From Escherichia phage ECO4, in the sequence record NC_054911.1: DNA of 64,000 bases, one strand, 5' to 3'. Positions within the stretch are counted from its first letter, which is position 1. Each line of letters begins with the position of its first letter. Below, piece after piece: positions 48,835 through 49,662 of this stretch. The position numbers and the translations under genes are program-made. A model generated the notes under the pieces. It saw only the letters and a list, made by a program, of their open reading frames with translations. It had not been told where the DNA came from and ran no database searches.

Positions 48835-48910
48835 TGGTCGAGGCAGTAGGGATCGAACCTACGACCCAGGACTTAGAAGGTCCTTGCTCTTCCTTCTGAG
48901 CTATGCCTCG
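48835..48910 (-). tRNA. tRNA-Arg (anticodon UCU), CCA encoded
   Basis: Manual cloverleaf: acceptor CGAGGCA/TGCCTCG, anticodon loop CTTCTAA, T-loop TTCGATC. Confidence 0.8.
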
Positions 48911-48914
48911 TATT

Positions 48915-48989
48915 TGGCGGACGTGATAGGATTCGAACCTATAACCAATCACTTAACAGGCGATCGCTCTGCCATTGAGCTACACATCC
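48915..48989 (-). tRNA. tRNA-Asn (anticodon GUU), CCA encoded
   Basis: Manual cloverleaf: acceptor GGATGTG/CACGTCC, D-stem GCTC/GAGC, anticodon loop CTGTTAA, T-loop TTCGAAT. Confidence 0.75.
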
Positions 48990-48993
48990 AAAT

Positions 48994-49080
48994 TGGTGGG
49001 GAGTGATGGAGTCGAACCACCCGAGTCGCAATGACAATGGATTTACAGTCCACACCGCTACCTCTACGGGATAACTCCCC
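48994..49080 (-). tRNA. tRNA-Tyr (anticodon GUA), class II with long variable arm, CCA encoded
   Basis: Manual fold: acceptor GGGGAGT/ACTCCCC, anticodon loop CTGTAAA, long variable arm, T-loop TTCGACT. Confidence 0.7.
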
Positions 49081-49089
49081 AAATTAATT

Positions 49090-49164
49090 TGGTGGCCCTG
49101 GGTGGAATTGAACCACCATCTGGCGATTATGAGTCGCTTGCTTGAACCTTCCAGCTACAGGGCC
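49090..49164 (-). tRNA. tRNA with CAU anticodon (Ile2 or Met), CCA encoded
   Basis: Acceptor GGCCCTG/CAGGGCC, anticodon loop CTCATAA, T-loop TTCAATT; position of tRNA-Ile in T4. Confidence 0.75.
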
Positions 49165-49165
49165 T

Positions 49166-49241
49166 TGGTGCTGATTGACGGAATCGAACCGCCGACCTTC
49201 TCATTACAAGTGAGTTGCTCTACCTACTGAGCTAAATCAGC
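49166..49241 (-). tRNA. tRNA-Thr (anticodon UGU), CCA encoded
   Basis: Acceptor GCTGATT/AATCAGC, anticodon loop CTTGTAA, T-loop TTCGATT. Confidence 0.8.
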
Positions 49242-49246
49242 AAAAC

Positions 49247-49336
49247 TGGCGGAGGCGATAGGATTTGAACCTATGAGTCGCCGGAGCGACTGCCGGTTTT
49301 CAAGACCGGTGCATTAAACCACTCTGCCACGCCTCC
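49247..49336 (-). tRNA. tRNA-Ser (anticodon UGA), class II
   Basis: Acceptor GGAGGCG/CGCCTCC, anticodon stem CCGGT/ACCGG with loop CTTGAAA, long variable arm. Confidence 0.8.
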
Positions 49337-49338
49337 AG

Positions 49339-49412
49339 TCTCCGCGGCAGGATTTGAACCTACGACATTCTGCTCCCAAAGCAGACGCTCTACCAAACTG
49401 AGCTACACGGAG
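49339..49412 (-). tRNA. tRNA-Pro (anticodon UGG), CCA not encoded
   Basis: Acceptor CTCCGTG/CGCGGAG (C1-G72), anticodon loop TTTGGGA, T-loop TTCAAAT. Confidence 0.8.
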
Positions 49413-49422
49413 TAAATTAAAT

Positions 49423-49496
49423 TGGAGCGGATAATGAGAATCGAACTCACATCATCAGATTGGAAGTCTGAGGTAATGCCATTATACGATATCCGC
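49423..49496 (-). tRNA. tRNA-Gly (anticodon UCC), CCA encoded
   Basis: Acceptor GCGGATA/TATCCGC, anticodon loop CTTCCAA, T-loop TTCGATT. Confidence 0.8.
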
Positions 49497-49501
49497 AAAT
49501 T

Positions 49502-49588
49502 TGGTGCGAGAAGTGGGACTCGAACCCACAAGGAAATCATTCCGCAGCATTTTAAGTGCTGTGCCTTTACCAATTTGACCATTCTCGC
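49502..49588 (-). tRNA. tRNA-Leu (anticodon UAA), class II, CCA encoded
   Basis: Acceptor GCGAGAA/TTCTCGC, anticodon stem CAGCA/TGCTG loop CTTAAAA, long variable arm. Confidence 0.8.
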
Positions 49589-49589
49589 G

Positions 49590-49662
49590 CTGGGAATAAA
49601 GGACTCGAACCTTTGCATCCTGGAATCAAAATCCAGTGCCTTACCAACTTGGCTAATTCCCA
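49590..49662 (-). tRNA. tRNA-Gln (anticodon UUG), CCA not encoded
   Basis: Acceptor TGGGAAT/ATTCCCA, anticodon stem CTGGA/TCCAG loop TTTTGAT, T-loop TTCGAGT. Confidence 0.8.

Follow-up and report, generated by a model that had tools for sequence, protein, structure and literature searches.

The window analysed here, a stretch of 64,000 nucleotides from Escherichia phage ECO4 (NC_054911.1), contains a cluster of ten closely packed tRNA genes on its minus strand. We conclude, with a probability of roughly 0.93, that this cluster is the tRNA operon, in the form without segB that is typical of phage T2, of a T4-like coliphage (Tequatrovirus). This estimate covers the best explanation as a whole: the gene identities, the alleles, the SegB site and the codon counts were established directly, and transcription, processing, the decoding benefit, the anti-Septu effect and homing are carried over from published work on the phages T4, T2L and T6. 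Nothing contradicts the identification of the cluster. The original prediction, drawn from the sequence alone, is a correct manual annotation of a known and widely annotated feature. The novelty that it implied for the arrangement of the Tyr and Asn genes is not borne out, and the discovery value is small, because the operon is a textbook feature of T-even phages; its layout has been in print for T2L since 2008 (PMC2330249), and hundreds of phage genomes carry it in their annotation. For annotation, the analysis marks this phage as lacking segB in the cluster and, by inference, as susceptible to SegB homing, specifies the tRNA alleles that it carries, and replaces the customary 'tRNA-Met' label by a probable tRNA-Ile2. 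The kind of tRNA-Tyr flagged here also bears on the host-range prediction of therapeutic T4-like phages against strains with tRNA-cleaving defences.

Identification of the tRNA genes

ARAGORN, run over the whole window, called exactly ten tRNA genes, all on the minus strand between positions 48835 and 49662, and independently returned for each of them a cloverleaf, a 7-nt anticodon loop and an anticodon (Table 1). The same ten genes, and no further sequence in the 64 kb, exceeded the gathering score of 29 bits of the Rfam covariance model RF00005. Nine of them scored between 59 and 73 bits (E-values of 1e-10 to 5e-14), and tRNA-Tyr passed only narrowly with 30.2 bits. The ten minus-strand genes and all the anticodons given in the original prediction are thus confirmed, and for Tyr and Asn the folds and anticodons also agree with the tRNAscan-SE annotations of near-identical GenBank genes, which give Tyr(GTA) and Asn(GTT). 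From Gln to Arg the genes are separated by 1, 5, 10, 2, 5, 1, 9, 4 and 4 nt, so that the predicted range of 1-9 nt was essentially right but for the one spacer of 10 nt. The list of open reading frames (ORFs) of the cluster holds none between tRNA genes. That Gln and Pro lack an encoded CCA and that the others possess it could be read from the bases following the discriminators: CCA is encoded in 8 of the 10 genes, in tRNA-Gln only C74 is encoded and the next base is G1 of tRNA-Leu, and the 3' end of tRNA-Pro reads CT, the next base being G1 of tRNA-Ser.

Table 1. Features of the tRNA operon, listed in the presumed direction of transcription. The strand is that of the window; CCA refers to the 3' end of the tRNA.
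Feature	Anticodon (DNA)	Positions	Strand	CCA	Called by	Remarks
Probable MotA-dependent middle promoter		49732-49756	-			MotA box TGCTTTA 49756-49750, 12-nt spacer, -10 TATTAT 49737-49732
tRNA-Gln(UUG)	ttg	49589-49662	-	unencoded	ARAGORN, Rfam	
tRNA-Leu(UAA)	taa	49502-49588	-	encoded	ARAGORN, Rfam	class II
tRNA-Gly(UCC)	tcc	49423-49496	-	encoded	ARAGORN, Rfam	
tRNA-Pro(UGG)	tgg	49338-49412	-	unencoded	ARAGORN, Rfam	variant allele
tRNA-Ser(UGA)	tga	49247-49336	-	encoded	ARAGORN, Rfam	class II
tRNA-Thr(UGU)	tgt	49166-49241	-	encoded	ARAGORN, Rfam	
tRNA with CAU anticodon		49090-49164	-	encoded	ARAGORN, Rfam	
tRNA-Tyr(GUA)	gta	48994-49080	-	encoded	ARAGORN, Rfam (30.2 bits)	class II
tRNA-Asn(GUU)	gtt	48915-48989	-	encoded	ARAGORN, Rfam (70.7 bits)	
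Predicted preferred 27-bp SegB recognition site		48913-48939	-			GGTTCGAATCCTATCACGTCCGCCAAA; exact match, 3' part of tRNA-Asn
tRNA-Arg(UCU)	tct	48835-48910	-	encoded	ARAGORN, Rfam	T2-type allele
116-aa ORF		48466-48816	-			inside the operon, downstream of Arg; 'trna.2' ORF of T2L
rnaD homolog (species 2 stable RNA)		48354-48466	-			79% identical to T4 rnaD
rnaC homolog (species 1 stable RNA)		48209-48347	-			97% identical to T4 rnaC
Intrinsic-terminator-like hairpin		48135-48158	-			10-bp stem, 7 G-C pairs, TTTTT; kept in T4

The low score of tRNA-Tyr is due to its long variable arm and to a weak D stem with a conserved C:C mismatch. Minimum free energy folding of the single sequence did not reproduce the cloverleaf of this tRNA (z = -0.9), and we therefore relied on covariation instead. 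Eight phage tRNA-Tyr sequences from five phage groups, namely those of the window, T2, T6, a Vequintavirus, a Felixounavirus, a T5-like phage, a Sugarlandvirus and a Klebsiella phage, were aligned, and pairs were counted on the ARAGORN cloverleaf. In this set 94% of the cells were paired, compensatory changes on both sides were found in 12 of the 24 pairs, none of 500 shuffles matched the observed pairing, and slid controls were about 50% paired. The tRNA-Tyr cloverleaf is real and supported by covariation. In a permissive Rfam scan the Tyr gene scored slightly higher against tRNA-Sec than as a tRNA. This match was rejected, as its 34.4 bits lie under the cut-off of 47, the gene has a GUA anticodon, and the match is accounted for by the long variable arm.

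The cluster as an alternative to the segB cassette

Over 24 kb, the window shows 95-97% identity to many Tequatrovirus genomes and equals none of them. The cluster with its surroundings (1.1 kb) matches 911 phage records, nearly all of them from T4-like phages of enterobacteria, and the Tyr-Asn pair was found in at least 427 GenBank phage records at a coverage of at least 80%. The cluster lies between the trna.2/ipI side and rnaD-rnaC-e.8, with flanks that are 93-97% identical to T4. Brok-Volchanskaya et al. sequenced the tRNA regions of T2L, RB1 and RB3, which are phages without segB, and reported for T2L two ORFs and four additional tRNA genes, for Met(CAU), Tyr, Asn and Arg, at the place where T4 has segB (PMC2330249). 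The T2L primers no. 5-7, 11-13 and 24 match the CAU, Tyr, Asn and Arg genes of the window and the 116-aa ORF. Indeed, a block of CAU, Tyr, Asn and Arg genes with T2L alleles, together with the 'trna.2' ORF, stands in the window in place of Ile-segB-Arg of T4, and the two are alternative cassettes. Against the T4 record (NC_000866, 70908-72530), in which Ile, segB and Arg are followed by rnaD and rnaC, the original prediction was right in placing Tyr and Asn in the slot held by segB. The small ORFs that it named for this gap are not there, segB standing alone between Ile and Arg. Likewise, the first seven genes and Arg do follow the order of T4, but the CAU and Arg genes are not T4 alleles, being identical to T2 and only 47/75 and 50/76 identical to tRNA-Ile and tRNA-Arg of T4, respectively.

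The preferred cleavage site of SegB is a 27-bp sequence in tRNA-Asn, and in crosses of T4 with T2L 99.6% of the progeny inherit segB, the T2L block being excluded (PMC2330249). We reconstructed this site from the stated differences between the Asn and Ser sites (G6, A16, G18, A26 and A27; PMC2330249). The resulting sequence, GGTTCGAATCCTATCACGTCCGCCAAA, agrees with each of the five stated differences and with no other position, and has one exact match in the window; the window is the same as T2 across this stretch. Since the Asn gene holds the exact preferred SegB site, the window, to judge from its sequence, carries the segB-less recipient allele. Upon co-infection with a segB-carrying phage, a cut at the Asn site would lead to conversion of the block to the segB cassette. 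The sequences of T6 and the window part precisely where Asn begins, at its first base, which would fit the cassette having replaced Asn in T6, and no Asn remnants were found beside segB in T6 or T4.

There is no segB in the cluster itself, and the sole BLAST match to T4 segB was weak (68% over 266 nt) and falls in a GIY-YIG ORF at 20610-20868. This putative seg-like homing-endonuclease ORF of 276 aa (20058-20888, minus strand), whose 5' part has 68% DNA identity to T4 segB, overlaps the start of a 605-aa ORF resembling an anaerobic ribonucleotide reductase (nrdD), both being named by appearance.

Allelic composition of the cluster

Compared gene by gene, the cluster is a mosaic: its Gln allele is that of Shigella phage KRT47, its Pro allele that of phage vB_Eco_BGP (BGP), and the part from the CAU gene to the 116-aa ORF is as in T2. 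This T2/T4 mosaic matches BGP-type genomes and not T2L exactly. The Leu and Gly genes are 87/87 and 73/74 identical to T4, and the Ser gene is identical to T2, including the encoded CCA. A tRNA-Thr gene, with 73/76 positions shared with T4 and 64/76 shared with host thrU, is present as in T4-like genomes; T2 has an ORF at this place, so that 'trna.1' is not a member of this cluster. The Pro gene is identical to the BGP allele and 63/75 identical to the allele shared by T4, T2 and KRT47. The Asn gene is 1 nt from both T2 and KRT47 and 46/76 identical to host asnT. The Tyr gene is 1 nt from T2 and 2 nt from tRNA-Tyr of T6 (85/87), both of the latter differences being at stem positions and the variable arm being identical.

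The differences between alleles of T-even phages concentrate in the anticodon arms, with pairing kept; for Gln, 8 of the 8 differences from the T4/BGP allele fall there. Nucleases that act on anticodon arms could have selected for this clustering, or it could stem from block gene conversion. The 12 differences of the Pro gene are spread over the anticodon, T and acceptor stems and preserve pairing, and in Thr the pair 27-43 is changed from C-G to A:A. The Tyr and Asn genes each differ from T2 by one pair-preserving base, U40 to C in Tyr (49041) and C40 to U in Asn (48951), both thus at position 40 of the anticodon stem. This position adjoins the bond cleaved by the nuclease AriB (see below), which may be a coincidence. 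No phage record was found with both position-40 variants, the best being 99.4% identical over the pair.

Outside the T4-like phages, tRNA-Tyr of the window has 95.6% identity to its counterpart in unrelated Vequintavirus coliphages (Vequintavirus Murica), 92% to the one in Cronobacter phage CR3, and 84-87% to those of Felixounavirus and T5-like phages, and it is only 58/87 identical to host tyrU. This suggests a single lineage of phage tRNA-Tyr that has been exchanged among coliphage families.

Other elements of the operon

The putative promoter upstream of tRNA-Gln was read with the MotA-box consensus, and its region is nearly identical to that of T4. By homology it is probably a MotA-type middle promoter, as a middle promoter just upstream of the T4 cluster drives the whole operon, the transcript of which terminates after the species I RNA (PMC2330249). 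One transcript of about 1.6 kb would then comprise the ten tRNAs, the 116-aa ORF, rnaD and rnaC, and would end at the hairpin at 48158-48135, which is the probable end of the operon. In T4, the tRNAs are processed by RNase P and 3' trimming, and Gln and Pro need the host CCA-adding enzyme. In the present phage, host RNase P would similarly cut the tRNA 5' ends, and exonucleases and the CCA-adding enzyme would finish the 3' ends of Gln and Pro.

The 116-aa ORF, the 5' end of which is matched by T2L primer no. 24, is present in T2, BGP and KRT47 and not in T4. It is the 'trna.2' ORF of T2L that is excluded by SegB homing. It matches phrog_3355 (function unknown), and searches of PHROGs and Pfam returned only families of unknown function. 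A homolog search gave seven clusters, all from T4-like phages, and the AlphaFold (AF2) model, with a pLDDT of 64, was matched by Foldseek against BFVD only to uncharacterised phage proteins. No known domain and no informative structural match was thus obtained from PHROGs, Pfam or Foldseek/BFVD.

In the rnaD homolog, both ends are kept and the central ~45 nt have been exchanged in comparison with T4, BGP and KRT47. That this centre is new was ruled out, as at least 98 phage records carry this second rnaD allele with 100% identity, under the annotation 'hypothetical protein'. The predicted fold of rnaC is stable (z = -4.3), with a tRNA-like GGTTCGAATCC T-arm. No Rfam family covers rnaC or rnaD.

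Probable supply of tRNAs to the phage

Codons were counted in 68 ORFs of the window (16,166 codons) and set against two host references, namely approximate E. coli values of public tables and a sample of 12 K-12 genes that is small and atypical. UAU and AAU amount to 36.7 and 45.0 per 1000 in the window, as compared to 19.0 and 28.6 in the K-12 sample and to about 16 and 18 per 1000 in the tabulated E. coli rates. Relative to the tabulated values, the phage over-uses the ten cognate codon sets with the exception of CAY, and AGA, AUA, GGA, UCA and ACA reach 2.3-4.8 times these values (AGA 4.8 times, AUA 2.7 times). Against the K-12 sample, each of the A-ending codons shows a smaller excess (3.8 times for AGA, 1.6 times for AUA), and for ACA it is absent. 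His codons, at 0.8 times the host rate, show no enrichment, in keeping with tRNA-His being dispensable. Eight of the tRNAs would read A-ending codons or AUA and AGA, and Tyr(GUA) and Asn(GUU) would read UAY and AAY. With all these codons over-used by the phage compared to its host, the operon would supplement the tRNAs of the host. Providing tRNAs for over-used codons is therefore likely to be its function.

For tRNA-Tyr, a further benefit is predicted. The Septu proteins PtuAB cleave tRNA-Tyr in the variable arm, and extra T6 tRNA-Tyr, the expression of which has been demonstrated by northern blotting and tRNA sequencing, restores infection under Septu in a dose-dependent manner (PMC13096335). 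In the same study, T4, which has no Tyr gene, was sensitive to Septu and T2, which has one, was resistant (PMC13096335). By sequence, tRNA-Tyr of the window resembles this published Septu counter, with 85/87 identical positions and an identical variable arm. It would replace, depending on its dose, the host tRNA-Tyr that is destroyed by PtuAB-type immunity (Septu, retron-Eco7).

Several points weigh against these views. The tRNA region of T-even phages is dispensable in laboratory hosts (PMC2330249), so that any benefit must be conditional. The codon frequencies used for E. coli are either approximate table values or come from a small and atypical sample, and expression of the operon in the window is presumed from close relatives, for which it has been published (the tRNAs of T4 and tRNA-Tyr of T6). 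Moreover, tRNA-Tyr of T6 is itself cleaved by Septu (PMC13096335), so that its effect depends on dose and a single copy may protect only weakly, and the Septu resistance of T2 may or may not come from its tRNA.

Anti-defence as a possible main role of the Tyr-Asn block

A different possibility, which we regard as clearly the less probable one, is that the Tyr-Asn block, joined by His in relatives, serves mainly against host defences, providing replacements or decoys for tRNAs cut by PtuAB (Tyr) and AriB (Asn and, weakly, His). In addition to the rescue of T6 by tRNA-Tyr under Septu (PMC13096335), this would be consistent with the action of AriB, the nuclease of the PARIS system, which cuts host tRNA-Lys(UUU), host tRNA-Thr(UGU) and host tRNA-Asn(GUU) between positions 40 and 41 (U36AAUC^A/C, where ^ denotes the cut), with His(GUG) as a probable minor target, and with the contribution of tRNA-Asn of T5 to the evasion of PARIS (PMC12409363). 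The anticodon arm of the Asn gene in the window (U36AAGU^G) differs from host asnT (U36AAUC^C) at all of positions 39-41, and that of the Thr gene (U36AAUG^A) differs from host thrU (UAAUC^A) at position 40. These arms are compatible with variants that are insensitive to the nuclease, but they prove nothing. The clustering of T-even allele differences in the anticodon arms points in the same direction, as does the presence of tRNA-His in about half of the relatives even though His codons are not over-used. However, T-even phages lack the main target of PARIS, tRNA-Lys, and ARAGORN found no such gene in the 64 kb. T4 is rescued by tRNA-Lys of T5 alone, without any need for tRNA-Asn (PMC12409363), and tRNA-Tyr of T6 is not resistant to Septu. 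Furthermore, the differences in the anticodon stems could be neutral compensatory drift, and the strong over-use of UAU and AAU is already explained by codon supply.

In its boldest form this idea would make the optional Tyr-Asn(-His) block a mobile anti-defence cassette of nuclease-insensitive or surplus tRNAs that is erased by SegB homing, a proposal that we hold to be less likely than not. If it is true, T-even populations would trade immune evasion against invasion by the homing endonuclease. The part concerning Tyr has been published for T6; the roles of Asn and His, and the idea that the phage tRNA-Asn (U36AAGU^G) withstands AriB, are hypothetical and may or may not apply.

Identity of the CAU gene

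The gene with the CAU anticodon is labelled Met by ARAGORN, by tRNAscan-SE annotations and in most GenBank records, and its T2L counterpart was called tRNA-Met in the 2008 paper (PMC2330249). Nevertheless, an elongator or initiator tRNA-Met is improbable in our view. Over its full length, the CAU tRNA is 80-82% identical to E. coli chromosomal genes named tRNA-Ile by PGAP, and it is therefore probably a reader of AUA rather than tRNA-Met. Its anticodon stem-loop GCGACUCAUAAUCGC and the GGCCC start of its acceptor match E. coli ileX. The T4 gene at the same position is a known tRNA-Ile, and AUA amounts to 12.1 per 1000 codons in the window, which is 1.6-2.7 times the host rate. Most likely, this gene encodes tRNA-Ile2, which would read AUA after a presumed lysidine modification.

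Possible hitch-hiking of the extra tRNA genes

It is very improbable that the extra tRNA genes confer no significant benefit and are mere recombination cargo, hitch-hiking at tRNA hot spots for recombination and homing with the conserved motif GGTTCRANTCC. In favour of this view, the region is a mosaic (Gln as in KRT47, Pro as in BGP, CAU to Arg as in T2, rnaD as in other phages), its modules vary among phages (about half of the relatives have His, Thr is exchanged for an ORF in T2, Pro and Ser are deleted in T6), it is non-essential (PMC2330249), and tRNA-Tyr is 84-96% identical in unrelated coliphage genera. Against it, more than 400 records retain the Tyr-Asn pair with at least 95% identity and with pair-preserving substitutions only, which indicates purifying selection on structure, and a benefit of tRNA-Tyr for T6 has been demonstrated experimentally (PMC13096335).

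Comparison with the tRNA operons of related phages

The operon of the window, which we read as the segB-less form of the T-even tRNA operon, shares with T4 its genomic position, promoter region, terminator and the order Gln-Leu-Gly-Pro-Ser-Thr, these genes being 84-100% identical. T4 differs in having no Tyr, Asn or 116-aa ORF, in its unrelated Ile and Arg alleles, and in the missing CCA of its Ser and Ile genes, whereas CCA is encoded in Ser of the window. T2/T2L (EMBL AJ880101; AP018813.1, 67002-68651) is closer: it lacks segB, its CAU, Ser and Arg genes are identical and its Tyr and Asn genes 1 nt off each, the preferred SegB site is present in Asn, and Arg is followed by the 116-aa ORF and then by rnaD and rnaC. 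However, T2 has a 133-aa ORF, 'trna.1', in place of tRNA-Thr, and therefore nine tRNAs as compared to ten in the window, and it carries a T4-type Pro allele and a near-T4 Gln allele.

T6 (AP018814.1; Chihara et al. 2026, PMC13096335) has the same tRNA-Tyr, 2 nt off, but segB follows directly after Tyr, Asn being replaced exactly from its first base, and Ile and Arg are of the T4 type. Pro and Ser are deleted in T6, leaving a Pro/Thr chimera. The 'tRNA-Thr' of T6 (AP018814.1, 66642-66716; L006, 2643-2717) begins as the 5' half of tRNA-Pro (TCCGTGTAGCTCAG) and continues as the 3' part of Thr; the deletion removed the 3' part of Pro, Ser and the 5' part of Thr, and ARAGORN does not call the chimera. 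T6 is therefore probably without functional Pro, Ser and Thr tRNAs.

The eleven-tRNA type, represented by Shigella phage KRT47 (MN781580; 'Tequatrovirus ime09' type), has the same ten genes and the ORF at 97% identity, and differs by an extra 114-nt spacer and tRNA-His(GUG) between Asn and Arg. This His module is carried by at least 216 records, about half of the relatives, and is absent from the window between 48910 and 48915. The sequence CCAA(A)T, lying at the 3' ends of two tRNAs, flanks the indel. The spacer of KRT47 (L002, 1792-1905) has no annotated feature, and some records place a label here, tRNA-Val, 'Undet' or 'OTHER'. For phage 132, IME340 and ECO07P1, the alignment to the window is in one piece and of equal length, which would imply that they have no His insert. 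The best match overall is vB_Eco_BGP (OZ035849.1), which is 98.8% identical over 1.1 kb and for which ten tRNA genes are annotated in the same order, without His and with the same Pro allele and ORF; it differs from the window in its T4-type Gln and rnaD alleles.

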